64,000 bases of DNA from a bacterium (GTDB taxonomy: Bacteria; UBA10199; 2-02-FULL-44-16; JAAZCA01): assembly GCA_963674695.2 (NCBI GenBank), contig CAXXGI010000001.1:576001-640000 (forward strand). Direction: 5' to 3'. Both the position numbers and the translations under genes were made by a program. The notes beneath the pieces are model-generated. The model was not told the origin of the DNA and made no database searches. It was given only the letters and a program-made list of their open reading frames with translations. Below, one piece after another: positions 2,148 to 48,279 of this stretch (within the stretch, counting starts at the first letter, position 1; the number at the start of each line of letters is the position of its first letter).

Positions 2148-3080
2148 TTAACGTACCCCACTCTCCTCGATCACCAGCCTCGGGGGATACGACGAGAGTT
2201 TCGCCCGCACGCCAATCGGAATCGTAATATTCTCGACACCATGTCCGGAAGGAAGGCCGAACAGGACCGGATAGGCCGCATCCTTGAAGTGCCGACGCAA
2301 GAACCGCAAGAGCCTTCGGCGATCGCCTTCGATACAATTGGTCATCTCGGAGAAGACGACCCCCTGCACATGATCGAACTTACCGGCGATGCGCAGGTGG
2401 TTGAGATCGCCATCGAGCTGCAGGTGCCCCTCCCCCACCTCCTCGATGAAAAAGATGGCCCCCCGCGTATCGATTTCGAACGGCGTCCCCAGCGTACGCA
2501 ACATGCGCGTGAGATTCCCCCCGATGATCCGCCCGCGCCCCTCGCCCACGTTGATGACCTCCAGATCCTTCCCGTAGATATCCCCCAACCGCGTGCGTTT
2601 GGTGACCGCCTCCTGCAGGGCGATCTCAGTCGCGGGCGGCATGCCCTTGTAAATCTCACCGGCGACGGTCGGCCCGTGGAAGGTGACCCAGCCGTATCGC
2701 ATGTGAAAGTAGAGGAGCAAAATGGTGATGTCGGAAAATCCGACGAAGATCTTGGGATAGGCCGAGAGATCGACCCGATCCAGATAGGGGATCAGGGCGA
2801 TGGAACCATACCCCGCCTCGGCGCAGAAGATCGCCGCGATCGACGGATTCCGAAAGAGCCGAATGATCTCGGCCGCCTTCTCCTCATAACGCTTCATCCG
2901 TTCGTTATCGGAGGGTGATCGTGAATGCGTCAGCACGCGCCGAGGCACGACCGGGTCAAACCCCCACCAGCGCAGTTTGTCGATGCCACGGCGCAACCCC
3001 TTCCGTTCAAAGGAAGAGGCCGGTGCCGCAATGCCGATGCGATCGCCGGGAACGAGGCCAAAGGGTTTGATGGGGCGCAT
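2148..3080 (-). CDS. LD-carboxypeptidase (peptidase S66 family)
   Basis: GDRIGIAAPASS, FVGFSDIT (Ser), TFHGP, GGNL, FIEEVGE (Glu), GLPSGHG (His). Start set at MRPIKP; the longer ORF overlaps another gene. Confidence 0.92.
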   Translation of the reverse strand: MRPIKPFGLVPGDRIGIAAPASSFERKGLRRGIDKLRWWGFDPVVPRRVLTHSRSPSDNERMKRYEEKAAEIIRLFRNPSIAAIFCAEAGYGSIALIPYLDRVDLSAYPKIFVGFSDITILLLYFHMRYGWVTFHGPTVAGEIYKGMPPATEIALQEAVTKRTRLGDIYGKDLEVINVGEGRGRIIGGNLTRMLRTLGTPFEIDTRGAIFFIEEVGEGHLQLDGDLNHLRIAGKFDHVQGVVFSEMTNCIEGDRRRLLRFLRRHFKDAAYPVLFGLPSGHGVENITIPIGVRAKLSSYPPRLVIEESGVR

Positions 3081-3181
3081 GATTCTGAACCTATCGAATT
3101 TGTTTGTGTTTTTTGAGTATAGCGCGTTGGGCACCATCGCGCAAGCGATGCGCCCTCCGCCAGGGAGAAAAGAGGCTGGGG

Positions 3182-3559
3182 TCAGTACGGCCTCCGGTAC
3201 ATCATGGATGCCCACAGGTACGACCCGGCACCATGAGGATGGTGGACATAGGCCGTCGCCCAGAGCATGGGATTCATATAATACCGACGCGGCGCCGGAA
3301 CGACGTGGCCGACGGGAAGCGGCGTGTTGTGCAAGGCATTGAGCAGCTGACGGTGATCCGGATCCATCGCCCCCATCCCTCCGCCGCGGTAGGTCGTGCC
3401 GATCGTCCCCGGCGCGTTCACCATGCAGCCGCGCAGATCGCTCAGGCGTTCCACCTGACTCGGACAGGGACCGCCAGCGAAGGCCGTGGCGGATCCCGCA
3501 AGGATCAGCGCGACCAGCACGAGCATCATCGCAAACTGAATGTGTCGATCGACGTTCAT
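3182..3559 (-). CDS. Hypothetical secreted protein
   Basis: GAGGAG RBS; hydrophobic signal peptide ending ATAFA; sigma28-like promoter upstream. Confidence 0.6.
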   Translation of the reverse strand: MNVDRHIQFAMMLVLVALILAGSATAFAGGPCPSQVERLSDLRGCMVNAPGTIGTTYRGGGMGAMDPDHRQLLNALHNTPLPVGHVVPAPRRYYMNPMLWATAYVHHPHGAGSYLWASMMYRRPY

Positions 3560-3577
3560 AGAGGCTCCTCACTATCA

Positions 3578-3604
3578 CTATCGGTCGAAGAAAGGAAAAG
3601 TTGC
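3578..3604 (-). promoter_or_regulatory. Sigma28 (FliA)-like promoter
   Basis: Minus strand GCAACTTT-N11-ACCGATAG, compared with the FliA consensus TAAAGTTT-N11-GCCGATAA. Confidence 0.6.
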
Positions 3605-34399: not shown

Positions 34400-34498
34400 C
34401 GCATCCTCCTCATCATGTGGTTTCTACCCGTAGAGAGCCCACCGGGGCCCTTTCGTTACGGACAATTCTACCTGATCGATATTCATTTGGAAAAGGGA

Positions 34499-34525
34499 AC
34501 AACTTTCTGCGCGAACTGCCGATAA
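34499..34525 (+). promoter_or_regulatory. Sigma28-like promoter
   Basis: ACAACTTT-N11-GCCGATAA. Confidence 0.7.
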
Positions 34526-34562
34526 AACTGATAGCTGAAATGCGATGACAAACCTTCGCATG

Positions 34563-34656
34563 GTCATCCCCGCGAAAGCGGGGATCTCGATGGATCGCGA
34601 TAGTCGAGATTCCCCCGCCACACAACCGGCGGGCAGGCTGCTTTCGCGGAAATGAC
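34563..34656. repeat. REP-like doublet with nested insert in the second hairpin
   Basis: GTCATCCCCGCGAAAGCGGGGATCTCGA...TCGAGATTCC[CCCGCCACACAACCGGCGGGCAGGCT]GCTTTCGCGGAAATGAC. Confidence 0.8.
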
Positions 34657-34682
34657 CGCATAGAGCTTGAACGACAGTCTGC

Positions 34683-36479
34683 ATGAGGAGATCATTTCCC
34701 CAGATGAATTTCGAAGCCCTGACAGCACGCGCACGCGAGCCGCATTCATCGACGGCCTTCGATCGCCGATCATTCGATCGCACCATTACATCCGTCGCCG
34801 ATGAGAGCGGCATGACCGCGCTGCGGCAGCAGAGCGTCGAAACCGTCGCCGCGGCAAAGGACCTGCTGGGGCTCAACGGATATTGTGCCGAATCCGGAAA
34901 GAATTCCCAGCTGTGCCGACCCATGTTCGGGCAGACGAGCGCCGCCACAATCATTGAAGAAGGCGCGGTCGTGGTCGAAAATATCGCCCTCGCCACCGGC
35001 GTGGCGCTCGTGGCCTGGGGCATGGGCGAGATCCTCGCTGCCGTCGGCGCATGGCTGGCAACGGCATCGACGGTCGAGGCCGGCATCGGCGCCGGAACGG
35101 GAATGATAGCGATCACCGCCGTCGCCTGCGGCGATGCAACCGAACCCTCCGAAGAAGTCATTCCCGATGGCGACATCGACCTGGACTTCCCCCTGCCCGA
35201 CGGCGACCGCGAACACCCCGAGTTTGCCCCCCATACAGACGGCGATGACGATTCCGTCGAGGGAGACGTCGAGATGGATCCCGCACTCTGCGGCAACGGC
35301 GCCATCGATCCGGGCGAGGAGTGCGAATCGAACGAATGGGGGGAATGGATCGGCTGCACCGACTGCCTGCTCGATCCCCAGCTCACCCTGCTCATCTCGC
35401 GCGTCGGCATTCCCGATGCCATCCGACGCGAAGAGGAACGCGCCATCTTTCGCATCGACGATGAGGAATCGCCTGCTATTCTCTGTTCGCTTCCCGAGCG
35501 CGATGCGAGCGGAACCTTTTCTCGCCTCCATCGTTTCGATAGCCGCACGTCGCTGACCACTTCGGTGCTGACCGGATTCTACGGCTCCCCTTGGCGCCAA
35601 GCCGCGGTCGATACCGAGACGAACTGGCTCTTCTACCAGATGCAAGAGTGGCAGGAGACGCGCCCGCGTCTGGTGCATGTTGACGACGGTATCGTCATCC
35701 CGCTGGAAGGGAAAGATGACGTCACGCTCGAAGGAATGGAGCGCGTCTGCGCCTCGCGGGATCTCACGCACCTGGGCGGCATCGCCCTCGTCGACGGCAG
35801 CCCCACCGATCCGGCGCGCACATTCCGGCGCACCTCGCTCAGCGATCTCATGGAGCGCAACGATCCGCCAAACCCCGCAGCGCAGGGCGTTCAGGTATAT
35901 GAAACGCTGCACGGGGAACTCGCCGCGGGCGCACGCGCCACGACCCATTGCATGGACGATAGGGGCAACGCCGCGATCGCCGGCTGGGACAGCGATCGCA
36001 ACGCCATCGGCGCGATCCTGCTCGTCGCGCCCGACAACAGCGTCACGCGCGTCGCACCGGATATCATCGCAAACGCATCAGCTTCGGCACCCGTCATCGC
36101 CCCCGAGGGCACGCTCTGCTTTCTGGCCATGGCAAGCGATGCCACGGAACTGATCTGCACCTCCGCCAACGACCCCGATGCGATCGAACGCAGCCCCGCC
36201 CCGGAGGCCGCGCGGGAGATCATCGGCATCAGCGACGATGGCCGCCAGGTCATCGCGTTCGACGGCGCACGCGCGCTCTCCCTCTTCGACCGCGAGTTAG
36301 GTCGCTGGATCGAACCGGATCTCGGCGGAATCACGCAGGGGGATATCATCGTCGCCGCCGCCGTGGCCGGCCGCTGGCTCTTCGTGCGCTCCGAATACAA
36401 CGACGGCGGTGACATCGCCACCGCCGTCTGGAGAATCTCTCTTGACGAGACGCTTACGGCTGTCCCTGCATCTCGATGA
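34683..36479 (+). CDS. Orphan family A, copy 1: N-terminal extension, hydrophobic segment, myxobacterial-type Cys repeat, probable beta-propeller
   Basis: CGNGAIDPGEECE Cys repeat; paralogous to 44726..46369 (SVET.A..K.LLG..GYC, GQTS.A.I.EE.AV.VEN.ALA, PEFAPHTDGD, G.YG.PWRQ.AV). Confidence 0.75.
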   Translation: MRRSFPQMNFEALTARAREPHSSTAFDRRSFDRTITSVADESGMTALRQQSVETVAAAKDLLGLNGYCAESGKNSQLCRPMFGQTSAATIIEEGAVVVENIALATGVALVAWGMGEILAAVGAWLATASTVEAGIGAGTGMIAITAVACGDATEPSEEVIPDGDIDLDFPLPDGDREHPEFAPHTDGDDDSVEGDVEMDPALCGNGAIDPGEECESNEWGEWIGCTDCLLDPQLTLLISRVGIPDAIRREEERAIFRIDDEESPAILCSLPERDASGTFSRLHRFDSRTSLTTSVLTGFYGSPWRQAAVDTETNWLFYQMQEWQETRPRLVHVDDGIVIPLEGKDDVTLEGMERVCASRDLTHLGGIALVDGSPTDPARTFRRTSLSDLMERNDPPNPAAQGVQVYETLHGELAAGARATTHCMDDRGNAAIAGWDSDRNAIGAILLVAPDNSVTRVAPDIIANASASAPVIAPEGTLCFLAMASDATELICTSANDPDAIERSPAPEAAREIIGISDDGRQVIAFDGARALSLFDRELGRWIEPDLGGITQGDIIVAAAVAGRWLFVRSEYNDGGDIATAVWRISLDETLTAVPASR

Positions 36480-38379
36480 GATCGAGCTGACACCGCGCAT
36501 CATTCCCGGTAAACGCTGCACACACCCGATATCGGAAGAGATTTATTGGATCCCCATTGATATACGGTTGCTGCATGACTTCAGGGGGTGCAAAGGTGTA
36601 TTCGATGCGATTGCCATTGCGGCAATAGCATAAAGCATGTTCTTCGCGCGCATCGTTACAAGAAGCCATATCAAGGCCAAAGTCATCACGTGGACCGAAT
36701 CGATCATAGAAGAGCTCATCGTATCCAGCCGGTTCAATCTCAAACATGGAGAGAACGCTGATCGACGCCGTATCCAGGTGTACCCCACTCATTTCGGGCT
36801 CAAATGGGCTGAAAAACTCCAAACAATTATCAACCCTATTGCCAGCCACGCGCGCGCACTCCGACTCTACTGCCTCGCGAAATGCCTGAAGCCACTGAAG
36901 CGAAGAACTCGCTTCGGTCGACCCATCATCGCGAGTCGAAATACCCGTTACAGGCACGCAAGCTCCTACATCGCGAAAGAGCATCGGCGTTTCCAACATA
37001 GATTCCATCCCATACTCCATGCGAAGGTCACGCGCCAGGCGCTCGTAGAGACAAACCCCGTTGGCATATTCGTCCGATCCAAAGGCCTCCGTTCGTTTCA
37101 CCATCGAACCACACTGATCTCGAAATGCAGGGATGACATCCGGGCAGTGATTCACAGAATCGACCGCGGGATAGAGCGGACAGCCGAGATCAGTGCCGCT
37201 CGTCACACTGCCGTACCGACATCGCGTTCCGTCCGCCGATGCCGTCATCCACTTGTTCTGACAGCCAACACACTTCTTCACATTGCGATCCCATATCTTG
37301 CCCATCTCCTCACAGCGCACACACCGCCGACCCTCTACCTTTCCCTTACACAGACAGCCCTCATCGGTCATGTCCGCATTTGGAATGCACTCACACTGCC
37401 CAGCACGATAGACCGCCGCAAGGTTCGGATGTGCCGGCACGCTCTCGCCCGCCATGGCACATCCGCATCCAGCTACACCCAGATAATTCCCCGTATCGTC
37501 GAAGTTACCCACCAACCGATAGTTCGGATCACTCGAAACACATGCCGTGCAAGTCATGTCCGCAAGCACAATTCCAGGACCGTCGTCGGGACAATTGCAC
37601 TGACCACCATCCATATAGGTTCCGCCTTCATACAAACCGGACTCCACCGCATCTCCCCGAGCCGTTTCGGGCTGCAACTCGCCCAAACAATTCGGACAAT
37701 GCGAGATATCCGCAAGGGCATTCCAGACATGGTGGATCTCACCATCCTTCTGTATGCGGAAAGAACACCCACACCAGCGCGGTTCATTTTCGGTCGTATA
37801 TCCGAGCAGCATGCGAATAAGCGGATTGAGTCGGAAGACCATGGAACCTGCCGGACAGGAACAGGAGAGGCCACGCGATTCCGCCCCGGTATAACAATCG
37901 CAACGCTCCTTCTCCTCGTTCCAACGACCATCCTCACACGCCACCCGCAGGCGAGCTTTCCCCAGATAGTCGATCGTCCCAAACTGGAACCCCGACCGTG
38001 CAGAAACTTTTCCCTCCGCATCACCGCCCGATACAATCAGATCCGTGCGCGCCTTCATCTGTTTGCCCATCGTCGCCATCGCAAGCGATGGAGATGCAAC
38101 CGGCTCAGCGATCGACACTACTTTTCCATCGATGCGCACGCGATCGGTGCCGACGAACTCCAGATCGAGTTTTTTGATCTGCGGCATGAGCTTCTCGGGC
38201 ATCCGCTGTTCCACCTTCACCATCGGCACCGCCTCTTTCTGCGGTGCTGCTTTCACCGCCGGTGCCGGCTTCGGCTTGCGCCCGAAGAGCTTGCCCCAGT
38301 CGAAGGCGTCGCTTCGGCCGGGCAGGCAGATGAGAACGGCGACGATGATGATGACGACCGATGCGTGTAGGCGTTTCAT
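36454..38379 (-). CDS. Orphan family B, copy 1: secreted Cys-rich (EGF/furin-like) protein
   Basis: Signal peptide MKRLH..SDA; many CxC pairs; shares LGCPL...DS...CP, CG.MV, CLYE, WL..(F/Y)REA, CYCR with 46372..47781. Confidence 0.75.
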   Translation of the reverse strand: MKRLHASVVIIIVAVLICLPGRSDAFDWGKLFGRKPKPAPAVKAAPQKEAVPMVKVEQRMPEKLMPQIKKLDLEFVGTDRVRIDGKVVSIAEPVASPSLAMATMGKQMKARTDLIVSGGDAEGKVSARSGFQFGTIDYLGKARLRVACEDGRWNEEKERCDCYTGAESRGLSCSCPAGSMVFRLNPLIRMLLGYTTENEPRWCGCSFRIQKDGEIHHVWNALADISHCPNCLGELQPETARGDAVESGLYEGGTYMDGGQCNCPDDGPGIVLADMTCTACVSSDPNYRLVGNFDDTGNYLGVAGCGCAMAGESVPAHPNLAAVYRAGQCECIPNADMTDEGCLCKGKVEGRRCVRCEEMGKIWDRNVKKCVGCQNKWMTASADGTRCRYGSVTSGTDLGCPLYPAVDSVNHCPDVIPAFRDQCGSMVKRTEAFGSDEYANGVCLYERLARDLRMEYGMESMLETPMLFRDVGACVPVTGISTRDDGSTEASSSLQWLQAFREAVESECARVAGNRVDNCLEFFSPFEPEMSGVHLDTASISVLSMFEIEPAGYDELFYDRFGPRDDFGLDMASCNDAREEHALCYCRNGNRIEYTFAPPEVMQQPYINGDPINLFRYRVCAAFTGNDARCQLDLIEMQGQP

Positions 38380-38418
38380 GGTGTCCTCCCGTGGGATGAT
38401 GCAGCGTCATCTATATGT

Positions 38419-38434
38419 AGCAAATTTCGTTCCA
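38419..38434 (-). promoter_or_regulatory. Sigma54 -24/-12 promoter
   Basis: Minus strand TGGAACGAAATTTGCT, 40 nt upstream of the family B copy 1 ATG. Confidence 0.7.
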
Positions 38435-38599
38435 GGGATCGATAGGGTTCTGACAAAGAGAGGTGTTTTCGTTTTATGAGTGATAACGGAACCTTCCGGC
38501 AATCATGCCAATTCTATCGAGCAAGAAAGCAAGGCGAGGACGTCAATTCCGTAAAATTGGACGAATTGCGACGATTTTTTGACGATAACAGAGGATGAA

Positions 38600-39175
38600 C
38601 TACCGACACCGCGCGCCCTCGCGCAGTTTGGCCCGCCCACGATGGAGGCGCACGCGCAGGGCTTCCGCGGTCAATCCCAGCATCTCGGCTGCTTCCTCAT
38701 GCGTATGCCCTTCGAAGTCGACGAGCGTGACCGCACGGCGCATGCCGTCGGGAAGTGAGGCCAGGGCCCTTTCCAGACAGGTGCGCAGCTGATCGCTCTC
38801 GATCAACTCCTCGGGCAACGAAACGCGACGATCGCCCGTGGGCGAAGGAAGATGCGCATGGCGCTCATGGACATCATGCGCATCGTGTCCGGACTCCTCC
38901 TGTTTGCGTCGCCGTTTCTTGATGCAAAGCGATTGCGCCACCTTATAGAACCAGTTCTTGACGGAAGCCTCATGGCGAAAACCAGGGAGTGCATCGATGG
39001 CCACGGCGAAGGTCTCCTGCAAGACCTCCTCGGCATCCTCGCGATTGCCACAGACGCGATGGCCATAGCGTTCCATCCGATCGAAATAGCGATGCACGAG
39101 CTCGGCCAATGCGTCGCGATCGCCCCCACGATAGGCCGCCACCAGGTCTCCATCATTTTTCTCGATGCCGGTCAT
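38600..39175 (-). CDS. ECF RNA polymerase sigma factor
   Basis: DGDLV..YRGGDRDAL.ELV.RY, DAEEVLQETF, F...ASVKNWFYKVA, LP...R.AV.L.DFEG.T.EE.A.MLG......RLHRGR..L. Confidence 0.92.
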   Translation of the reverse strand: MTGIEKNDGDLVAAYRGGDRDALAELVHRYFDRMERYGHRVCGNREDAEEVLQETFAVAIDALPGFRHEASVKNWFYKVAQSLCIKKRRRKQEESGHDAHDVHERHAHLPSPTGDRRVSLPEELIESDQLRTCLERALASLPDGMRRAVTLVDFEGHTHEEAAEMLGLTAEALRVRLHRGRAKLREGARCR

Positions 39176-39294
39176 ATCACTCCTCATACAAAAGCCGGGC
39201 ATGTGGATCACAACTGAACACTGGGGTCAATGGAATCGCCGCACCATTTATAGAGGTTGACAATGCAGGGAATTGTTAGTAACATATGTTCATA

Positions 39295-39651
39295 ATGGTG
39301 AGACCGACACTCCAACGCCGTGTAGCCGCCCAACCGAGGGTGCGTCACTTCAAACCGCAGGGGATCCCGCTGGCCGATCTGGCGGAGGTCCAATTGGCCG
39401 AAGACGGCCTGGAAGCCCTGCGGCTCGCCGATGTGGAGGGGCTCTACCACGATGAGGCGGCCCGACGCATGAACGTCTCGCGCCCCACCTTCGGACGCAT
39501 CCTGGCCACGGCCCGACGCACGGTCGCCGAGGCGATCACGATGGGGCACGCGATTCGCATCGAGGGGGGCAGCGTCGAACAGGTCGCCCCACCGCGCGGC
39601 GGCGGGCGCGGCCGAGGTCGCGGACGATGCCGACGTGGGTGGCAACGATAA
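39295..39651 (+). CDS. DUF134 domain HTH protein
   Basis: MVRP...RRV, FKPQGIP, EALRLADVEGL..DEAA.RMNVSRPTFGRIL..AR..VAEAI..G.AIRIEGG. Confidence 0.9.
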   Translation: MVRPTLQRRVAAQPRVRHFKPQGIPLADLAEVQLAEDGLEALRLADVEGLYHDEAARRMNVSRPTFGRILATARRTVAEAITMGHAIRIEGGSVEQVAPPRGGGRGRGRGRCRRGWQR

Positions 39652-39678
39652 CGGATGTATACAACGAGGAGGTGGATC

Positions 39679-40032
39679 ATGCCGGGATTCGATAGGACAG
39701 GACCGAGAGGCGAAGGACCCATGACGGGCGGTGGACGAGGGATGTGCAATCCTGCAGGCGGTACGGGTGGATACGGAGGCTACGGTCTCGGCCGCGGCGG
39801 CATGCCCTGGGGTGGCGGGCGCGGACGCGGCTTTGGCGGTGGACGCGGCTGGGGACGCGGTTTCGGCCGAGGATGGTTCGGCGCTGGTGCAGCTGCGCCG
39901 ATCGCAGCACCGACTGCGGATGACGAGCGCCGGTATCTCGCCGATCAACTGAGCCACCTCGAAAATGAGGTACGTGCAATCAAGGATCGCCTCTCCCAGC
40001 TCGACAAGCCGGATGAAAAGGAGCCCACATGA
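39679..40032 (+). CDS. DUF5320 family Gly/Arg-rich protein
   Basis: MPGFDRTGPRGEGPMTGGGRGMC; C-terminal coiled coil. Confidence 0.88.
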   Translation: MPGFDRTGPRGEGPMTGGGRGMCNPAGGTGGYGGYGLGRGGMPWGGGRGRGFGGGRGWGRGFGRGWFGAGAAAPIAAPTADDERRYLADQLSHLENEVRAIKDRLSQLDKPDEKEPT

Positions 40033-40388
40033 AAATTCTTGTTACCGCAACAGCACCCGACGCGGATGCCGAAGTCGATCCGCGTTTCGGACGCGCCAAA
40101 CACTTCGCGATCTATGACACCGAGGAGAAGTCGTTCTCGTTTGTCGACAACGCGCAGAACTTGAACGCCCCGAGCGGCGCGGGCGTACAGGCAGCCGCCA
40201 ACGTCGCACGCGCCGGGGCCGAGGTGGTCATCACGGGCAACTGCGGTCCGAAGGCATTTCACACGCTCACCGCGGCGAAGATCAAGATCGCCATCGGGGC
40301 GACGGGCACGGTGCGCGAAGCGATCAAGAAATTCGAAGGAGATGAACTCGACATCGCCACCGAAGCGAATGTCGAAGGACATTGGTAG
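40029..40388 (+). CDS. NifB/NifX family Mo-Fe cluster-binding protein
   Basis: VDPRFGRAKHF, GAGVQAA, VITGNCGPKAF. Confidence 0.9.
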   Translation: MKILVTATAPDADAEVDPRFGRAKHFAIYDTEEKSFSFVDNAQNLNAPSGAGVQAAANVARAGAEVVITGNCGPKAFHTLTAAKIKIAIGATGTVREAIKKFEGDELDIATEANVEGHW

Positions 40389-40406
40389 GATACCGAGGAG
40401 GTTCAT

Positions 40407-40634
40407 ATGCCACGAGGTGACGGAACAGGACCGATGGGCGGCGGAGGTGGCCGCGGTGGACGAGGTGGCGGTGGAATGGGCGGAGGTCGCGGGCGCATGG
40501 GCGGAACGGCTGCCGGGCTGGGTGGAGAGTGCGTCTGCCCCAAGTGCGGCAAGCGCATTCCGCACGGACGCGGCGCCCCTTGCAATCAGATACCATGCCC
40601 TGACTGCGGCACAACGATGACACGCGCCTCATGA
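40407..40634 (+). CDS. Small Gly-rich Zn-ribbon protein (DUF5320-like)
   Basis: MPRGDGTGPMG..GRG; CVCPKCG..PH.RG.PC....CPDCG. Confidence 0.85.
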   Translation: MPRGDGTGPMGGGGGRGGRGGGGMGGGRGRMGGTAAGLGGECVCPKCGKRIPHGRGAPCNQIPCPDCGTTMTRAS

Positions 40635-41485
40635 GAATCGCCATCGCCAGCGGCAAGGGGGGAACGGGGAAGACGACCATCGCCACGAGCGTGGCGCTCG
40701 CACTCGTTCGCGCAGGGCGCGCCGCGCAACTCATCGATTGCGATGTCGAGGAACCCAACTCCCATCTCTACATCCATCCCGCCATCGAGAAAACCATCGC
40801 GGTGGACGTGATGGCCCCGATGGTCGATCAAACCACATGTACGCACTGCGGCGCTTGTGCCGAGTTCTGCCGTTTCAATGCGCTGGCCTCGCTCCCCGAT
40901 CAGACGCTCGTCTTTCCGGAACTCTGTCACAGCTGCACCGGATGTGTGCACGTCTGCCCGGAAAAGGCCATCGCAGCGATCCAGCGCACCATCGGTTCGA
41001 TCGAAATCGGTCACGATGGAAAGCTCATCTATGCCGCAGGACGCCTCAATGTCGGCGAAGCGCGCGCTACACCGATCATCGCTGCGCTCGACGCCCACAT
41101 CGATGCCGATCGCGTGACCATCCTCGACGCCCCGCCGGGCTCCTCCTGTCCGGTCGTCGAAACGCTGCGCATCAGCGACTTCTGTCTGCTTGTCGCTGAG
41201 CCCACGCCGTTTGGTCTGGCCGATCTCGAACACGTCGCGGCCGTCGCAGAAGCGATGAAGATTCCCCGCGCAGCCCTCATCAACCGCGACGGCATGGGGG
41301 ATGATCGCGTCGAACGATTCCTGGAGGAGAAAGGGGTGCCGCTCCTCATGAAGATCCCCAACGATCGCCGCATCGCCGAACGCATGGCCGGCGGCACGGC
41401 CCTCATCGATGTACGACCTGAGCTGGCCCCACCCCTGCTCGACCTGGTCGAAAAAATCGAACGACTCTCTCGTGAGGCATCATGA
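40631..41485 (+). CDS. MinD-superfamily P-loop ATPase with inserted ferredoxin domain, subunit 1
   Basis: ASGKGGTGKTT, DCDVEEPN, CTHCGACAEFC, CHSCTGCVHVCP, DAPPGSSCP, EPTPFG. Confidence 0.92.
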   Translation: MRIAIASGKGGTGKTTIATSVALALVRAGRAAQLIDCDVEEPNSHLYIHPAIEKTIAVDVMAPMVDQTTCTHCGACAEFCRFNALASLPDQTLVFPELCHSCTGCVHVCPEKAIAAIQRTIGSIEIGHDGKLIYAAGRLNVGEARATPIIAALDAHIDADRVTILDAPPGSSCPVVETLRISDFCLLVAEPTPFGLADLEHVAAVAEAMKIPRAALINRDGMGDDRVERFLEEKGVPLLMKIPNDRRIAERMAGGTALIDVRPELAPPLLDLVEKIERLSREAS

Positions 41486-42345
41486 CCAAGACCCTCGTCG
41501 TCATCAGCGGAAAGGGAGGCACGGGAAAGACCAGTGTCACCGCATCGTTCGCACTGCTCGCCTCGAACGCCGTCATCGCCGATGGCGATGTCGACGCCGC
41601 CGACCTGCACCTGATCCTCGATCCGACGACACGCGAAAAGGCCCCCTTCACCGCAGGCGTCATCGCATCGATCGATCGTGAGCGCTGCACCGCATGCGGC
41701 GCATGCCGCGAAGCATGCGTCTATCACGCCATCGACGAATCGTTCGTCATCGATCCGATCGCCTGCGAGGGCTGCGGACTCTGCCAGTGGATCTGTCCCG
41801 CCGATGCCGTCGTCCTCACACCAAACGCATGCGGGCGCTCATTCATCTCCGACACGCGCGCCGGTCCTTTCGTACACGCGCGCCTCGATCCCGGCGCGGA
41901 GAACTCCGGCAAACTCGTCTCCTTCGTGCGCGGAAAGGCCGCCGAATTGGCCGAGGAGAAGAAACTCGTCATCGTCGATGGACCACCGGGGATCGGCTGT
42001 CCGGTCATCGCCGCCATCGGGGGAACGGATCTCGCGCTCATCGTCACCGAACCCTCGGCCGCCGCCTTTGAGGACTTGAAGCGCATCGCCGACACCGCCG
42101 CTCACTTCGACGTTCCGGTCGTCTGCGCGATCAATCGCTATGACATCAGCACAGAGCTGACCGCACGCATCGAGGCGTATCTGGCCGAACGCAGCATCCC
42201 GCTCATCGGCCGCATCCCCTATGACGAGGCCTTTTTCGCCGCACAGCTAGCGGGAAAAGCGATCGTGGAGGCGGACAAAGGCCCTGCCGCAACGGAGATT
42301 CGGCGCATGTGGAAAAACATTGAAGATCGGCTCGGAATGGAATAG
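41482..42345 (+). CDS. MinD-superfamily P-loop ATPase with inserted ferredoxin domain, subunit 2
   Basis: ISGKGGTGKTS, DVDAADL, CTACGACREAC, CEGCGLCQWICP, ENSGKLV, DGPPGIGCPVIA. Confidence 0.92.
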   Translation: MTKTLVVISGKGGTGKTSVTASFALLASNAVIADGDVDAADLHLILDPTTREKAPFTAGVIASIDRERCTACGACREACVYHAIDESFVIDPIACEGCGLCQWICPADAVVLTPNACGRSFISDTRAGPFVHARLDPGAENSGKLVSFVRGKAAELAEEKKLVIVDGPPGIGCPVIAAIGGTDLALIVTEPSAAAFEDLKRIADTAAHFDVPVVCAINRYDISTELTARIEAYLAERSIPLIGRIPYDEAFFAAQLAGKAIVEADKGPAATEIRRMWKNIEDRLGME

Positions 42346-42357
42346 AGATCGCCCGCT

Positions 42358-42789
42358 ATGATCGAATATACGGACATCCTGCGGGATCACTTCCTCACAC
42401 CGCGCAACGCCGGCGAGATCGAATCACCCGATGGCGTGGGGTTCATCGGCGATCCGGGTTGCGGCGACATGCTCAAGGTGACCATCCGCGTCGAGAACGA
42501 TCGCCTCACCGATATCCGCTTTCTCTGCAAGGGGTGCGCGGCGGCCATCGGCACCGCCAGCATGATGACGGAGATGGCCCGAGGCAAGACGCTCGACGAG
42601 GCGATCGAGATCACCGACGAGGCGATCGAAGCGGCGGTCGGCGGGCTGCCGGAAGCCAAGCGCCACTGTTCCAACCTGGGCGCGAGTGCCCTGCACGAAG
42701 CGGTCTACGACTACACGCACAAAAGCATCGAACACGAGACGTACGCCGCTCGCGCGATGGACGTCTTTTCCCCCAACGAAGGAGGATGA
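42358..42789 (+). CDS. iscU: IscU/NifU-type Fe-S scaffold
   Basis: DHFLTPRNAG, GCGD, KGCAAAI, LPEAKRHCSNL. Confidence 0.9.
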   Translation: MIEYTDILRDHFLTPRNAGEIESPDGVGFIGDPGCGDMLKVTIRVENDRLTDIRFLCKGCAAAIGTASMMTEMARGKTLDEAIEITDEAIEAAVGGLPEAKRHCSNLGASALHEAVYDYTHKSIEHETYAARAMDVFSPNEGG

Positions 42790-42791
42790 TC

Positions 42792-43130
42792 ATGAAGGTT
42801 GCCATACCGATTGCCAACGGAGCGCTCTGCATGCACTTCGGTCACTGCGAACAGTTCGCCCTCGTGGAGGTCGACGAAACCACGAAGACGATCACCCAGA
42901 CGACGATGGTCACCCCGCCGCCGCACGAACCCGGCATGCTCCCGCCGTGGTTGGCCAAACAAGGCGCCACGCACATCATCGCCGGCGGCATGGGCAGCCG
43001 CGCGCAGGACCTCTTCGCGGCACAGAGCATCGCGGTCATCGTCGGCGCCCCGGCAGACGAACCGGAAGCGTTGGTGAAGTTGTATCTTTCCGGAACGCTC
43101 AAGACGGGCACGAATACGTGTGATCACTGA
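42792..43130 (+). CDS. NifB/NifX family protein
   Basis: MKVAIP, CMHFGHCEQF, PPHEPG.LP.WL, IAGGMG.RA, NTCDH. Confidence 0.9.
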   Translation: MKVAIPIANGALCMHFGHCEQFALVEVDETTKTITQTTMVTPPPHEPGMLPPWLAKQGATHIIAGGMGSRAQDLFAAQSIAVIVGAPADEPEALVKLYLSGTLKTGTNTCDH

Positions 43131-43159
43131 TCGGACACTGATGTCACCGCGAGGGAGAC

Positions 43160-44119
43160 ATGAACCCTTCTACTCGCCATGTCTTCGGCCCCGTCCCGTC
43201 GCGTCGCCTCGGCCGATCGCTGGGCGTCGATCTCGTTCCGTTCAAGACCTGCACCTATGATTGCATCTACTGCCAGCTCGGACCGACACCCCAGCAAACG
43301 GTTACGCGCCATTCATTCATTTCGGTCGAAGGAGTACTCGACGAGGTGAAAGCGCTTCTGAGCGAAGGCGTCCTCGCGGACTTCATCACCCTCTCCGGCT
43401 CAGGGGAACCGACCCTCAACAGCGACATCGGGCGTATCGTCGAGGAACTCAAGGCCCGTTTTTCCATCCCCGTAGCGGTATTGACCAACGGCTCGCTGCT
43501 GTGGATGCCCGAGGTGCGTCGTTCGCTCCTCGCCGCCAATCTCGTCATCCCGTCGCTCGACGCGAGCAACCCGGATATTTTTCGCCGCATCAATCGTCCG
43601 CACGATGACATCGATTTCTCCCGCATGCTCGATGGCCTCATCACCTTCCGCGAGGAATACCGCGGCCAAATCTGGCTCGAAGTCTTCCTCGTTCGCGGCA
43701 TCAACGACGGCGACCACGAGATCGAAGCGCTCGCAGAGGCTGCACGCCGAATCCGTCCGGACCGCATTCAGCTCAACACCGTAGACCGCCCTCCGGCTGA
43801 GACAGGCGTGCACCCGGTGCCACGCGAAGTCCTCGATGCGATCTGCGATCGTTTCCAACCGCATGCGGAGATCATCGCTTCATTCAAGCACCGCGGCGAA
43901 GTCGTGCGCACGTCAACGGCCAAAGAGATCGTCACCCTCTGCCAAAGGCGTCCCTGCACGCTCTCGGATATCGCCGAAGCATTGGGCCTGCATCGAAACG
44001 AAGTCGTCAAGTTGACGAGGGAACTCACACAACGCGGCCGACTTCAGATCAAACGCGCGGAACGCGGGGTGTTCTACACGGCGATGGGCAAAGGCGAAGC
44101 GCCCGAAGCCGAGGAATAA
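43160..44119 (+). CDS. Radical SAM protein (COG0731/Tyw1-like bacterial family)
   Basis: FGPVPSRRLGRSLGVDL, CTYDCIYC, SGSGEPTL, LTNGSL, PSLDA, QLNTVDRPP; C-terminal wHTH. Confidence 0.92.
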   Translation: MNPSTRHVFGPVPSRRLGRSLGVDLVPFKTCTYDCIYCQLGPTPQQTVTRHSFISVEGVLDEVKALLSEGVLADFITLSGSGEPTLNSDIGRIVEELKARFSIPVAVLTNGSLLWMPEVRRSLLAANLVIPSLDASNPDIFRRINRPHDDIDFSRMLDGLITFREEYRGQIWLEVFLVRGINDGDHEIEALAEAARRIRPDRIQLNTVDRPPAETGVHPVPREVLDAICDRFQPHAEIIASFKHRGEVVRTSTAKEIVTLCQRRPCTLSDIAEALGLHRNEVVKLTRELTQRGRLQIKRAERGVFYTAMGKGEAPEAEE

Positions 44120-44158
44120 CCCTTTCCGCTTTTTCCCGTTGAAAAAAGACCCGATGCC

Positions 44159-44503
44159 TTATCGACTGCGACCCGAGCGACGATGTTGAAGCAGGAGAAC
44201 CCCGGTCACGATGAGGGCGATGGGCAGAAGCGGGAGATCGAGCCCCATCATTTCGCTCCCTCCCGCCGCGAGGAAGAGCACGCCGATGATCACCCAGTAC
44301 CAACTGATGGTCTGACGCAGGAGCAGGCGCACGAGCGTTCCGAAGAGCGAGATAATGCCCACGCCGAGCGCGCCGACACCGCGCGGGATCTGCGGCAGGA
44401 CGAGCACCGCGCCGATCCAGACGAAGAAGAGGACCCAGCCGAAGGCATCGAGGCCCTTGGAGAGCCGGCCGCGCCCCTGTCTTCCGATCGTCATGCCGTT
44501 CAT
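44159..44503 (-). CDS. Small 4-TM hypothetical membrane protein
   Basis: LDAFGWVLFFVWIG and further hydrophobic segments. Confidence 0.65.
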   Translation of the reverse strand: MNGMTIGRQGRGRLSKGLDAFGWVLFFVWIGAVLVLPQIPRGVGALGVGIISLFGTLVRLLLRQTISWYWVIIGVLFLAAGGSEMMGLDLPLLPIALIVTGVLLLQHRRSGRSR

Positions 44504-44519
44504 GGGACCCCCGTAACCA

Positions 44520-44663
44520 GCAGTGCAAAAACAACACAGTGGGGCGCATCCCGCAAGCCGTTTTGAGGGTCACTCCGAAATTCGCGTTGCGCTTCAGCAC
44601 GTTGCCCGATAAGTCCCCGGTAACGCAATCGCTGGAGAAACACCAAACCACTTGAAGAGCACG
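44520..44663. other. Conserved non-coding element, copy 1
   Basis: Shares GCAGTGCAAAAACAACA, CGAAATTCGCGTTGCGyTTCAGCACGTTGCCCGATArGTCCCCG and AAACACCAAACC with 48018..48195. Confidence 0.8.
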
Positions 44664-44674
44664 GGAAAAAGATC

Positions 44675-44701
44675 ACAACTTTCCGCGATCATGACCGATA
44701 A
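44675..44701 (+). promoter_or_regulatory. Sigma28-like promoter
   Basis: ACAACTTT-N11-ACCGATAA. Confidence 0.68.
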
Positions 44702-44725
44702 TCATGTTGACTACCTCCGGAAGGA

Positions 44726-46369
44726 ATGGACCTGGGAACGATCAACGCCATGGGAATGCCTCTGAACGTACACACGCTCTCGCGACGGAACGACGCCACC
44801 GGCGCCGCTTGGCTACACGAGCGAAGCGTTGAGACCATCGCTTCCGGAAAACACCTCCTGGGGATCGATGGTTACTGCGCCGCACCAACAGCGAGCAGCA
44901 CATCTCACCTGCTGTGCACTCCTCTCATCGGACAAACCAGCCTCGCGGACATCTTCGAAGAAGCGGCCGTTCTCGTAGAGAACACCGCGCTGGCAATCGC
45001 CGGCACCATGGCCGTTGCCGGCGCCATCGCGGCAGCGGGCACGACGACGACCATCGGGGCCGCCGTAAGCGCCCTCCTCCTCATTGGCTGCACCGACGAT
45101 CACGCGACCGACGACAAGATCAACACCATCATCCATCCAGACGGCGACCGCGATCGCCCGGAGTTTGCCCCGCACACCGACGGCGATGAAGAAGTCGCGC
45201 AGGAGGAAGAGTGGGAGGAGGTGGACCCCGCGCTCTGCAGCAACGGCGAGCTCGACCCGGGCGAGGAGTGCGAGGCCAATTCGTATGGAGTCTGGATCGG
45301 TTGCACCGACTGCCTCCTCGATCCAAGCCTCACCAAGATCTTCTCGCACAGCATGGCGACCGCCGACTATCCCGAAACGACGGCCCCCAACCTGCAAGCC
45401 AAGGGGGACGACGGCATAATTGCCGTCTTCAGCGTTCCGAAGATCGACAGCGTCTCCCTCTATTCTTCCGTCCATGCCTTCGACGGCCGCACGGGGGAGA
45501 ACCCGCGCCTGGCGTCCGGCTACTACGGCATTCCCTGGCGCCAATCGGCCGTGAGCGACAACCTGGAACTCTTCGCCTATCAGATGGGGGGATGGGAGTT
45601 CACAACGCCGCGCGTCTTCGATCGCAATGGCGACGTCGATTATCTCCCGATCAGCGGCGTCGAGACGATGTGCACCTCCTCCGACCTCAGCTGGATCGGC
45701 GGCGTCACGCTCGCGAACGACCCGGACGATACACCGAGGGCGTTCTCCGTCGCGAAAATCTCCTTCGGTCGTAACGAGAATGATGTGCAGATCGTCGAGG
45801 GGATTGAACTCGCCCACGATGGGCTTCGCGACGAGCTTGCCGGCGGTGCCGTCGCCACGCGCCACTGTCTGGACGACGAGGGCTTCGGCGTCGTCGCCGC
45901 GCGAACGATGGACGGCATCGGCGCGCTCTATCTCGTCTCGCCGACGGGAGCATCACAGCGCATCGCCGATGAACTCACGCTCGCGAGCGCAGCGGTCATA
46001 TCGAGCGGCGGCATCATCGCCTTCCTCGCCCACAACGGTGACGCAAAGGACCTCGTCACCATCGATCGGCGCGACCCGGATACATGTATGCGCATCAGCG
46101 CACCACCGGGGGTCTCGCGCATCCACGACATCTCGCACGACGGCGCGAGCATCATCACCGACAGCGGCAGCGATGAAAGCGTTTACATCCGCCTGGCCGA
46201 AACGGACGAGTGGCGACTGACGAACACGGAATCGATCTCCGAGGACGAGCAGATCACGGCCGCCGTCATTCGCGGCACATGGATCTATCTGCAGACGAAG
46301 GATACGACCGGCGATCTCACGCGAACAAACATCTGGCGTTTGGCGCGCGAAGGGGAAACAACGAGGTGA
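44726..46369 (+). CDS. Orphan family A, copy 2
   Basis: Paralogue of 34683..36479; CSNGELDPGEECE..WIGCTDCLLDP; internal LLIGC. Confidence 0.75.
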   Translation: MDLGTINAMGMPLNVHTLSRRNDATGAAWLHERSVETIASGKHLLGIDGYCAAPTASSTSHLLCTPLIGQTSLADIFEEAAVLVENTALAIAGTMAVAGAIAAAGTTTTIGAAVSALLLIGCTDDHATDDKINTIIHPDGDRDRPEFAPHTDGDEEVAQEEEWEEVDPALCSNGELDPGEECEANSYGVWIGCTDCLLDPSLTKIFSHSMATADYPETTAPNLQAKGDDGIIAVFSVPKIDSVSLYSSVHAFDGRTGENPRLASGYYGIPWRQSAVSDNLELFAYQMGGWEFTTPRVFDRNGDVDYLPISGVETMCTSSDLSWIGGVTLANDPDDTPRAFSVAKISFGRNENDVQIVEGIELAHDGLRDELAGGAVATRHCLDDEGFGVVAARTMDGIGALYLVSPTGASQRIADELTLASAAVISSGGIIAFLAHNGDAKDLVTIDRRDPDTCMRISAPPGVSRIHDISHDGASIITDSGSDESVYIRLAETDEWRLTNTESISEDEQITAAVIRGTWIYLQTKDTTGDLTRTNIWRLAREGETTR

Positions 46370-46371
46370 GG

Positions 46372-47781
46372 TCACGGACAGATCGTACTGTCCTCCATCA
46401 GGTCCGAAAACTGCACCCGCAACTGCTCGCAGACAAGCCCCTGAATATCCACGGCACTCCCGACGAACGAATAATTGAGACGGGCATCTTCCCCGTCATG
46501 GTTCGCGCGACAATAACAGGAATCCGTGAAGGCATTCGAATTGTCGCAGTAGAATATCCTTCCCTGAGAGGGGATATCATCCGGCCCAAACGCAGTCATC
46601 CCCTCGTAGAACCATGCACCACTGATGTTGACCGGCAGGTAAGCGTCGTCCCCTTCCACGTGCGTCCACAGGAAGTCATTATTGGACATGCACGCGCCGT
46701 ACCGTTCAGTTCCAAACCCGAACAGGGCAAGGCATCCAACGTGGAGGGCCTCGCGATACTCATACAGCCATCGCGGGGAGATCAACGGCTCGCCGTCGGC
46801 ACTCACCTCTTCGATGACCGGCAGACAGAGCTTGCCGATCGATCCAGAGGTCTTCCCGAAGATCCCCTTCGCCTCCCAGTCCATAGAATTCGTCATCTGC
46901 TCATACAGGCAGGAGGTTTTTCCTTTATCCTGGACCATCTTTCCGCACGAGCTGAACTCCGGGCAACGATCATCACTATCCGGCACCACGCGAAGCGGAC
47001 AACCCAGCTCCGCTCCCGCCGTCTCCGGGTAGAGACATTTTCTGCCGACGCGAGCCATCCACCTGTTGGGGCACTCCTGGTGAACGGTGACGCCGAAACC
47101 GACATCCTTGCAATGCCCCCCGTTGCGCATCCTTTCCGGGTTCGCGGGGGTAAAACCGGACAAGCAGACACATCCCTCGGACGTCCCCGAATCGACGGCG
47201 TTGTCGCCACACCCGCAAGTCCGCGTCGAGGGATCGGGAATGCCCAGGGGATCCACATACGTGCCGCCCTCATCTCTCGCGCAGTAGCATTCGCCGGTGC
47301 GCGCATTCCGCTTGTAGAGGGGATCGTCGGATTTGCAGAGATTGCACTTCCCCAAACGGGCATCGATCATGGGGGAGTCTTTCGGGCAGCGACACTCCGA
47401 CATCCCGGCGTAGGTTCTCGAACTGCGCTCGCTGACCTTCTTGCCGGTGAGATTCTCCCGTTCCGTATCCCCCATGCACGCGCACCCGGCCGTCGGTGCC
47501 GCGAAGATATCCGGAAGCTGCACCTCCTTCACCAGGTTGCCTCCCTGAGGTTCGTACACCGTATAGCTGCACATGCAACGCGATAAGAACCACATCTGAC
47601 CATCGGGACACCGACGCCTGATCTCCCCCGTCATCCGTTTCTTCAGGCTCGGGGGACGCTGCACTCCCGATGGCTTTGCACGCATGCTCGATCCGGTCCG
47701 CAACTGCGCATCGCTCGTCGCGGATATCAGGAGACCGGTGGCGATGAGAACGACTCCGAGGGCAATCGATGCACGTTTCAT
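46372..47781 (-). CDS. Orphan family B, copy 2 (secreted Cys-rich protein)
   Basis: Signal peptide MKRAS..SDA after a GGGAGG RBS; paralogue of 36454..38379. Confidence 0.75.
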   Translation of the reverse strand: MKRASIALGVVLIATGLLISATSDAQLRTGSSMRAKPSGVQRPPSLKKRMTGEIRRRCPDGQMWFLSRCMCSYTVYEPQGGNLVKEVQLPDIFAAPTAGCACMGDTERENLTGKKVSERSSRTYAGMSECRCPKDSPMIDARLGKCNLCKSDDPLYKRNARTGECYCARDEGGTYVDPLGIPDPSTRTCGCGDNAVDSGTSEGCVCLSGFTPANPERMRNGGHCKDVGFGVTVHQECPNRWMARVGRKCLYPETAGAELGCPLRVVPDSDDRCPEFSSCGKMVQDKGKTSCLYEQMTNSMDWEAKGIFGKTSGSIGKLCLPVIEEVSADGEPLISPRWLYEYREALHVGCLALFGFGTERYGACMSNNDFLWTHVEGDDAYLPVNISGAWFYEGMTAFGPDDIPSQGRIFYCDNSNAFTDSCYCRANHDGEDARLNYSFVGSAVDIQGLVCEQLRVQFSDLMEDSTICP

Positions 47782-47816
47782 GACGCCTCCCCGTTGAACC
47801 AACAGGGCATTATATA

Positions 47817-47832
47817 AGCAAGAGGCATGCCA
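47817..47832 (-). promoter_or_regulatory. Sigma54 -24/-12 promoter
   Basis: Minus strand TGGCATGCCTCTTGCT, 36 nt upstream of the family B copy 2 ATG. Confidence 0.75.
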
Positions 47833-48017
47833 TCATGAGGACGCGATGGCGCATGCGCCTCCGCAAAAAAAGTCGTTCTTTCAATAGGTTGCAAGGCCGA
47901 CGGCAGCGGTCATCGGGAGCGAAGGCCTCATATCGAGAAAGGGAGGGATCGAGAGTCAATATATCGTCATGTCGCGACCATCCGATCGTCATGTCATTCA
48001 TGCCGCATCCGTGAATT

Positions 48018-48195
48018 GCAGTGCAAAAACAACATGGTAGCGACAATCCTGGAAGCCGTTTCGAGCCTCCATTCGAAATTCGCGTTGCGTTTCAGCACGT
48101 TGCCCGATAGGTCCCCGTCTCCGAATCTCAGCGGCTCGTCCTCGGGGGAGGCGAACGCAACCTGTGGATAAACACCAAACCGATTGAATATCACG
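48018..48195. other. Conserved non-coding element, copy 2 (with an extra hairpin of about 35 nt)
   Basis: Matches 44520..44663; extra segment TCTCCGAATCTCAGCGGCTCGTCCTCGGGGGAGGCG. Confidence 0.8.
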
Positions 48196-48221
48196 CAACT
48201 TTTCCCCCGAACGAACGATAC
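48195..48221 (+). promoter_or_regulatory. Sigma28-like promoter (weaker -10)
   Basis: GCAACTTT-N11-AACGATAC. Confidence 0.5.
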
Positions 48222-48279
48222 TTCGACGATTGTATTGAGCGGCCGCTTTCCGCGCCGCCCCGTGTAAGGAGAAGACCCC

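Follow-up and report, generated by a model that had tools for sequence, protein, structure and literature searches.

Three Diverged Copies of an Adjacent Gene Pair with FliA-Type and Sigma-54-Type Promoters, a Candidate Two-Protein Envelope System of an Uncultured Bacterium

The DNA analyzed here, referred to as the window, is a stretch of 64,000 nucleotides (nt) from a bacterium of the lineage UBA10199 (assembly GCA_963674695.2, contig CAXXGI010000001.1, positions 576,001 to 640,000). It carries two copies of a two-gene module, A and B, and a third copy is found on contig 3 of the same genome. In every copy the two genes are adjacent, the A gene is preceded by a FliA-type (sigma-28-like) promoter motif, and the B gene by a motif of the sigma-54 type. 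The A proteins combine a lipobox-like motif with a predicted beta-propeller, and the B proteins are cysteine-rich and start with a signal peptide. The explanation that we favor, with roughly even confidence, is that A and B form a lineage-restricted cognate envelope pair, in which a lipid-anchored propeller A would dock the exported, disulfide-rich B and the two halves would be gated separately by two sigma factors. This explanation and four alternatives are weighed below; the probabilities given to the five add up to one, with no share left for the case that none of them is right, so that each is slightly generous.

Gene Pairs, Homology, and Linkage

The genome was searched whole (3.03 Mb in three contigs, completeness 100%), and genome-wide counts used crude gene calls based on the length of open reading frames (ORFs) and third-position GC. 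The ORF list bears out the two convergent pairs of the preliminary description, A(+) facing B(-), at 34683-38379 and 44726-47781 of the window (Table 1), together with coding ends that share 26 nt in pair 1 and are separated by 2 nt in pair 2. The genes of the two pairs are diverged homologues, as had been described: A1 and A2 align over 562 columns with 35% identity (E 4e-97), and B1 and B2 with 26% identity (E 1e-15) and a cysteine pattern in common. Third-position GC values of 0.76 (A1), 0.79 (A2), and 0.72 (B2) fit the coding frames; that of B1 is lower (0.60), but an orthologue and paralogues of this gene exist. The ORF of A1 is open from 34683, but ATG 34701 is the likely start: it follows AGGAGA at a distance of 9 nt, and in the alignment it matches residue 1 of the orthologue P0002. 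The start of A2 (ATG 44726) is immediately preceded by GGAAGGA. Two long ORFs on the opposite strand over B1 and B2, 36637-38370(+) and 46210-47586(+), were rejected as genes; their translations are arginine-rich and without a Pfam family, and they were treated as probable shadow ORFs of DNA with 60% GC.

Table 1. Location of the two gene pairs, their promoter boxes, and the accompanying repeats in the window.
Feature	Position	Strand	Remarks
A1 gene	34701..36479 (ORF open from 34683)	+	592 amino acids (aa) from ATG 34701; paralogue and orthologue alignments
B1 gene	36454..38379	-	641 aa; signal peptide MKR...SDA; 37 cysteines, 8 CxC motifs
A2 gene	44726..46369	+	547 aa; architecture as in A1; lipobox LIGC at Cys122; predicted propeller at about residues 200-540
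B2 gene	46372..47781	-	469 aa from MKR start; signal peptide; 30 cysteines
FliA-type box of A1	34499..34525	+	ACAACTTT-N11-GCCGATAA
FliA-type box of A2	44675..44701	+	ACAACTTT-N11-ACCGATAA; 24 nt before ATG 44726
Sigma-54 -24/-12 box of B1	38419..38434	-	TGGAAC-N5-TTGCT, 39 nt before ATG
Sigma-54 -24/-12 box of B2	47817..47832	-	TGGCAT-N5-TTGCT, 35 nt before ATG
Interspersed palindromic repeat copy	34544..34656		In the 5' leader of A1; core resembles TCATCCCCGCGAAAGCGGGGATC
Direct repeat, left copy	44483..44663		Covers a membrane ORF of 114 aa (44159-44503, minus) at its start, with a leader of 160 nt
Direct repeat, right copy	47981..48195		Keeps the first codons of the membrane ORF, then diverges

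The third pair, found by the whole-genome search, encodes an A protein of 445 aa (A3) and a B protein of 493 aa from its MKR start (B3), placed in tandem on the same strand; the A3 stop is followed after 40 nt by the sigma-54 box of B3, and the interval contains no terminator. Profiles of the A core, of the N-terminal module of A (N-module), and of B, run over all ORFs of the genome, detected three cores of A and an equal number of B genes, adjacent in three of three cases with one A per B, and neither a solo A core nor a solo B. In the identity matrices, the values are 37.8% (A1-A2), 27.2% (A1-A3), and 25.5% (A2-A3) for the A family and 28.1% (B1-B2), 25.7% (B1-B3), and 21.1% (B2-B3) for the B family; the two matrices run in parallel, which fits the duplication of both genes as one block. 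Adjacency has also outlasted a switch in orientation between the convergent pairs 1 and 2 and the tandem pair 3. With regard to further paralogues, in which the persistence of convergent pairing had been proposed as a check, the A-B linkage holds in 3/3 pairs and the convergent pairing is not kept. Similarly, of the layout and promoters thought to be conserved despite divergence, both promoter types are present in 3/3 pairs, but the convergent layout only in 2/3.

Distribution of the Family Outside This Genome

Among 5.8 billion proteins searched by word index, one A and one B from outside this genome were identified: P0002, with about 65% identity to A1, and P0006, with about 50-52% identity to B1, each on record from a single Logan contig. 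These two proteins are probably an orthologous pair on the same foreign contig, a linkage that rests on both contigs measuring 10,831 bp. Searching 1.84 billion representatives with the A profile brought up one more, distant A (P0008; 448 aa, E 1e-36), while the other 19 matches of this profile touch only a short cysteine-rich knot, described below, or other short stretches, and a scan of genome contigs with the A alignment gave only 13 short matches, all to this knot. No relative was found in scans of metagenome contigs with P0008 and P0002 or of genome contigs with P0008. As a single query, A2 had no match in 40 related genomes, and the profiles of the N-module and of B had none in 92 other genomes of the class. 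A radical-SAM neighbor gene was found in only two of five family members, one of which lies on a 1.1-kb contig.

This narrow distribution bears on whether A and B are functionally coupled at all. They might instead be unrelated exported neighbors that were copied together by block duplication, which we consider unlikely. The pairing has been seen in one genome and one foreign contig, with no third gene or shared motif, and a direct repeat of about 80% identity, which has only two copies in the genome and brackets A2, B2, and both of their promoters, looks like the scar of a block insertion or duplication. However, the copies are old, with identities of 21-38%, and yet adjacency is kept in three of three pairs and outlasted an inversion; no A core or B stands alone in the genome, and both promoter types are retained in all copies. 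Among the runs listed, the region is contained in three DNA-type sequencing runs of one study and in no RNA run. No joint skipping A2-B2 at the flanking repeats, as excision of a cassette would leave, was found among the listed contigs of these three runs, although contigs cannot show its absence; one run contig spans 34620-48567 without any difference.

FliA-Type Promoters of the A Genes and Their Regulon

All three A genes are preceded by AACTTT-N11-(G/A)(C/T)CGATAA, in which the -10 elements, situated 11 nt after (C)AACTTT, read GCCGATAA in A1, ACCGATAA in A2, and GTCGATAA in A3. The box of A3, AACTTT-N11-GTCGATAA, stands 15 nt before the start codon. Of the pattern ACAACTTT-N11-RCCGATAA, noticed in the preliminary description before A1 and A2, the window contains these two copies and no other, and 100 shuffles gave no match. 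A repeat of 113 nt that recurs throughout the genome (34544-34656) separates the A1 box from the start, putting 175 nt between the two. Flagellar class-3 promoters, which are read by FliA, have the consensus TAAAGTTT-N11-GCCGATAA, and the motif described here shares with them the -10 element (in A1, GCCGATAA), a spacer of 11 nt, and a -35 element that is rich in T at its 3' end.

The motif extends well beyond the A genes. Genome-wide, the pattern AAC.TT-N10-12-[GA][CT]CGATA has 55 sites, compared with 1-4 in five shuffles, and for 42 of these sites an ORF begins no more than 250 nt downstream. A stricter form of the motif, with 28 sites in this genome, shows enrichment in each of the 20 relatives searched (1-33 sites per genome versus 0-2 for the reversed pattern). 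Among 32 ORFs behind such boxes that were scanned, 18 have no Pfam family, and the others include SLT transglycosylase, SET-domain, C25 peptidase, PilZ, and TSP3 proteins and a 3396-aa RHS-repeat protein; in a crude hydropathy scan of the 42 ORFs, few showed an N-terminal hydrophobic segment. Examples of the sites are found on contig 2 (345038-345061 and 91241-91264) and on contig 1 (518273-518296).

Within the window, an ORF at 2148-3602(-) encodes an LD-carboxypeptidase, with Peptidase_S66 domains from residue 181, and has a FliA-type box (3579-3602) at the start of the long ORF, the true start of the carboxypeptidase being probably further downstream. Two paralogous orphans of 453 and 466 aa on contig 2 (82879-84240 and 91412-92812) share an N-terminal 'RRQCIKE...' and near-identical FliA-type boxes, and starts resembling theirs are found on contig 3 at 205690, adjoining A3-B3.

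Sigma-54 Promoters of the B Genes

The boxes of B1, B2, and B3 agree with the sigma-54 consensus TGGCAC-N5-TTGCW, which has GG at -24 and GC at -12. In the window, TGGMAY-N5-TTGCT occurs exactly twice, against 0.05 occurrences expected; the boxes first described for B1 and B2 thus stand, but their distances from the ATG are 39 and 35 nt instead of the 36-40 nt given originally. The B3 box (TGGCAT-N5-TTGCT) is located 41 nt before the ATG and is followed by sequence close to that found after the B2 box. Throughout the genome, the sigma-54 pattern has 64 sites, where fewer than 10 were estimated to arise by chance from base composition. A downstream ORF was assigned by crude criteria to 41 of the 64, and many of these ORFs start with a signal or lipoprotein-like sequence.

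The gene for the corresponding sigma factor, rpoN, is present (TIGR02395, 448 bits versus a cut-off of 277), and the closest relatives of its product, with a best identity of 68%, come from uncultured delta-proteobacterium-like lineages. RpoN would be the likely reader of the B boxes. Sigma-54 promoters need an enhancer-binding activator, and no clear shared activator site was seen in the alignment of the three B upstream regions. Each of the three pairs keeps both promoter types, whatever its orientation.

FliA-Like Sigma Factor and Type III Secretion Genes

The best FliA/WhiG-like protein of the genome scores 132.7 bits with TIGR02479, for which the cut-off is 189.6, and the FliA/WhiG models are its top families. 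Its gene (contig 3, 8530-9399) lies in the midst of a type III secretion cluster (contig 3, 5658-13854) that encodes a YscJ/FliF-family lipoprotein and TPR, FliG-like, FliH/SctL, type III ATPase, and YscO/FliJ-like proteins, and the FHIPEP export-gate gene is found elsewhere in the genome, beside FHA/YscD-like genes. The sigma gene is immediately followed by an ORF of 165 aa that belongs to no family and could encode an anti-sigma factor; no FlgM was recognised. A FliA-like sigma factor is present in 40 of 41 genomes searched, including this one, with 50-76% identity for the best match per genome. In contrast to the flagellated control genomes, this genome has no match to the flagellin N-domain (PF00669) or to the rod/hook C-terminal domain (PF06429). 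The sigma28 of the preliminary description would be a FliA-like factor, scoring below the curated FliA/WhiG cut-off, in a genome in which no flagellin, rod, or hook domain was found.

In the flagellar system, the FlgM secretion checkpoint governs FliA. The arrangement found here is similar in that the sigma gene adjoins FliG/FliH/FliI/FliJ-like export genes, but it differs in that no flagellar filament, rod, or hook domain and no FlgM was recognised and in a regulon that consists mostly of orphan proteins. A broader proposal, which we regard as speculative and rather unlikely, is that of a re-used flagellar checkpoint. The sigma factor of the secretion cluster, found across the class, would drive a large, genome-variable regulon of mostly orphan, signal-less proteins, and A-B receptor-ligand pairs would form only when the status of the secretion machine (through A) and an environmental signal (through B) coincide; at export, A1 and A2 would shed their N-module into the cytoplasmic side, where it would report back. 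Since the sigma factor is conserved class-wide and the motif is enriched in 20 of 20 relatives, they may offer a route to predicting the secretion-linked regulon and the lifestyle of uncultured organisms.

The nearest analogue is Chlamydia, which is non-flagellated and has type III secretion genes and both sigma-28 and sigma-54 with small gene sets of their own, according to PMC12282069 and PMC7482065. In PMC12282069, sigma-28 and sigma-54 are each reported to have bound only two promoters, and both act late. Here, about 55 FliA-type sites and 64 sigma-54 sites are present, the sigma gene is placed inside the secretion cluster, and the organism belongs to a delta-proteobacterium-like uncultured lineage for which no developmental cycle is known. 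The earlier suggestion that the two sigma factors would act in opposing life stages was not supported. In a literature search for a FliA-type sigma factor tied to non-flagellar type III secretion, the titles listed dealt with flagellated enterobacteria, pseudomonads, Campylobacter, and type III secretion in general; this one search does not establish the arrangement as novel.

Architecture of Protein A

One cysteine is invariant in the five aligned A sequences. A lipobox has the form [LVI][ASTVI][GAS]C after a hydrophobic segment, and in the A proteins the invariant cysteine ends such a segment in a lipobox-like motif, which reads AVAC in A1, LIGC in A2, and ASAC, LQGC, and LGGC in the other sequences. 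Only A3 and P0008 begin directly with such a signal, preceded by no more than a short charged n-region. In A1, A2, and P0002, about 95-120 conserved residues precede the hydrophobic segment, with the pattern G-[LI]-[DN]-G-[YF]-C...L-C...EE-[GA]-A-[VI]...E-N..AL. This long N-module is not an artefact of the start codon, given that the promoter box stands only 24 nt before the start of A2 and 15 nt before that of A3, and given that the A1 start at 34701 aligns with the first residue of P0002. The profile search over all ORFs found the N-module in A1, A2, and one more protein, located at the start of contig 1. That protein (contig 1, 1-1736, minus strand) combines the N-module with a lipobox-like MAGC, acidic TSP3-like repeats (recognized by eye), and an OmpA domain; its ORF runs off the contig end and is preceded by AACATT-N11-GCCGATA. 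Pfam searches with the N-module alone gave nothing useful (one member matched LysR_substrate, E 0.038), and the N-module of A1 gave no lead in the ESM Atlas (best score 0.82).

The N-module raises the question of whether A1 and A2 could be substrates of the type III secretion machine, with the N-module serving for secretion or chaperone binding and the hydrophobic stretch inserting into a target membrane. The promoter class is common to about 40 ORFs, few of them with an N-terminal hydrophobic segment and including those of the SET-domain, RHS-repeat, and C25-peptidase proteins; the gene of the likely sigma factor is part of the secretion cluster; and the one other protein with an N-module has a promoter of the same class. 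Nevertheless, we consider this highly improbable, as the lipoprotein signals of A3 and P0008 are of the usual N-terminal kind, the long forms keep the invariant lipobox cysteine as well, and the cysteine-rich knot suggests an oxidising compartment reached via Sec. The presence of the N-module ahead of a lipoprotein signal is accounted for only by this reading and by the feedback proposed above for the re-used checkpoint.

After the invariant cysteine, the A proteins continue with an acidic linker, one six-cysteine knot (CGNGxxDPGEECE...GCTDC), and an all-beta domain. In the AlphaFold2 model of A2, this all-beta region has a predicted local distance difference test (pLDDT) score of 75-95 over residues 200-540, whereas the N-terminal 179 residues have a pLDDT of about 30. 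The best matches of the model in Foldseek among Protein Data Bank (PDB) structures are seven-bladed propellers (E 1e-10 to 1e-8), among them UTP18 (WD40), oligogalacturonate lyase, the propeller of prolyl oligopeptidase, and TolB of Acinetobacter (7mx5). The C-terminal part of A is therefore modeled as a seven-bladed beta-propeller, a fold that typically serves as a docking platform. The A proteins have no Pfam match at E 0.01 and no NCBIfam match at E 1.

Envelope beta-propellers with a docking function include TolB, the partner of Pal, and the lipoprotein BamB. Protein A would likewise be an exported propeller of the seven-bladed type, and TolB is among its structural matches; however, it has no sequence relationship to these proteins detectable with Pfam or NCBIfam, and it adds a lipid-anchor motif, an acidic linker, a cysteine-rich knot, and, in two copies, the long N-module. 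Its putative partner is also a large cysteine-rich protein and not a lipoprotein of the OmpA type, as in the case of TolB. The knot is the sole part of A that matches many foreign proteins, and it resembles the pattern CG[ND]G..[DE]xGEECDDGN..DGC..C, which we take to be that of the 'Myxococcus cysteine-rich repeat' family. The foreign proteins bear several repeats each and come largely from genomes labeled Myxococcota and Bdellovibrionota, whereas A has a single copy and is otherwise unrelated to them. No curated Pfam or NCBIfam model matched this repeat in A; the repeat-bearing proteins are found only by the A profile.

Protein B and the Absence of Known Families

The signal peptides of the form MKR...SDA described for B1 and B2 are seen in the translations. 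The B proteins have type-I-like signal peptides, 30-37 cysteines, and 7-9 CxC motifs, and in B1, B3, and P0006 the predicted cleavage site is immediately followed by a common F-D-[WF]..[LI]-F. No family was assigned to B by Pfam, NCBIfam, or PADLOC, a sequence search of the PDB with the B profile had no matches at E 1, and B1 gave no usable match in the ESM Atlas. The characterization of the module as an undescribed two-gene exported system is thus in keeping with the lack of Pfam, NCBIfam, and PADLOC matches. With respect to known anti-phage defence or toxin families, PADLOC assigned none to the six A and B proteins, nor did Pfam.

Between orthologues, B diverges faster than A (52% versus 65% identity). 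Rapid divergence of both proteins, and of B in particular, is what would be expected if B were a secreted enzyme or toxin, A a lipoprotein propeller acting as its inhibitor or immunity protein, and the two diversified together in an arms race. The several diverged, cognate-looking pairs, with A apparently anchored in the envelope and B apparently exported, would suit such a system as well. However, B contains no recognisable catalytic or toxin domain, and promoters for different sigma factors suit an immunity gene poorly, as it should be on together with the toxin. The convergent orientation of two of the pairs is also unusual for such systems, and we consider this explanation very unlikely.

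Gene Junctions and Antisense Transcription

As the preliminary description had it, no terminator is evident at the convergent junctions, since neither has a hairpin followed by a T-run; the sole candidate is a 12-bp GC-rich hairpin at 36402-36428, which lacks a T-run. An excludon is defined by overlapping transcription of neighboring genes that leads to mutually exclusive expression (PMC7154746, PMC12288877). Pairs 1 and 2 resemble this arrangement in their DNA layout, the level at which the likeness is known, with convergent neighbors, overlapping or abutting ends, no terminator, and different sigma-type promoters for the two genes. The unterminated transcripts of A and B might then silence the other gene by interference or by degradation of double-stranded RNA. 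The 3' end of B3, which does not face an A gene, has a clean hairpin and T-run, a contrast compatible with overlapping transcription in pairs 1 and 2. However, the opposing layout is kept in two of three pairs only. In pair 3, where A3 and B3 are in tandem and 40 nt apart with no terminator, read-through from A3 would co-transcribe and raise B3, an effect of the opposite sign; antisense silencing is therefore not the conserved logic of the module. Moreover, tight convergent junctions are ordinary in this genome, as 62 of 339 convergent pairs (crude gene call) overlap or lie within 10 nt. Excludon-like mutual exclusion is quite unlikely on these grounds, and as a conserved feature it was not upheld.

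Proposed Mechanism of the A-B Module

If A and B form a cognate envelope pair, the module would have been duplicated as a unit, and its products would be brought together as follows. A would be made as a precursor of the lipoprotein type, with the N-module of A1 and A2 staying on the cytoplasmic side, while B would be exported through Sec and stabilised by many disulfides. Transcription of A would start from the FliA-type promoter, probably by the sigma factor encoded among the type III secretion genes, and that of B from the sigma-54 promoter with an activator. The propeller of A would then bind its cognate B in the envelope, and the complex could not arise unless both regulatory inputs were active. 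The 3' convergence of two of the three pairs would be a by-product of compact packing and not a working principle.

Several points weigh against this explanation. The binding of A to B and the firing of either promoter are predictions from the DNA, and so is the assignment of the FliA-like sigma factor to the A motif, with a score below the NCBI cut-off for FliA/WhiG. The family has been seen in this genome, on one foreign contig, and in one distant A homologue (P0008) only, and the evidence for a conserved A-B linkage comes from a small number of independent cases. It is unusual for about 100 residues to come before a lipoprotein signal, and A1 and A2 might be signal-anchored membrane proteins instead. 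The model of B2 has a pLDDT of 33 and is unusable. Finally, FliA-type sites lie near sigma-54 sites (at most 4 kb) in 12 of 55 cases, compared with 8.6 +/- 2.7 for random placement; 67 of 500 randomisations reach 12, and a general linkage of the two site classes was rejected. With no general neighborhood of both motif classes, the dual wiring is specific to the A-B module, and it is also rare.

Should the proposed mechanism be correct, the module would show, in compact natural form, how a single envelope complex can depend on two independent inputs at the level of transcription, and this two-input wiring would have survived ancient duplications as well as an inversion. The module of about 100 residues before a lipoprotein signal would, in addition, represent unexplained export biology that is testable in a laboratory host.

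Repeats and Neighboring Genes

The palindromic repeat in the leader of A1 belongs to an abundant class, as BLASTN of 34400-34682 against the genome gave well over 200 matches on the three contigs, all within query positions 125-261. Rfam recognized only a tRNA in the window and nothing credible in 44400-48300 (one match, E 0.31). Directly upstream of B1 and on the same strand lies an extracytoplasmic function (ECF)-type sigma gene (38600-39211, minus), beside which no anti-sigma gene was recognisable. The two modules are separated by an unrelated operon (39286-44119) that encodes DUF134 and DUF5320 proteins, two NifX-like proteins, two MinD/ParA-ferredoxin proteins, a NifU-like protein, and a radical-SAM protein. 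On the other side, A2-B2 adjoins the gene of an 1831-aa exported protein (48280-53775), whose N-terminal half consists of repeats of 243 nt rich in DxDxDG (TSP3-like) and whose C-terminal half is made up of PKD/Ig-like domains.

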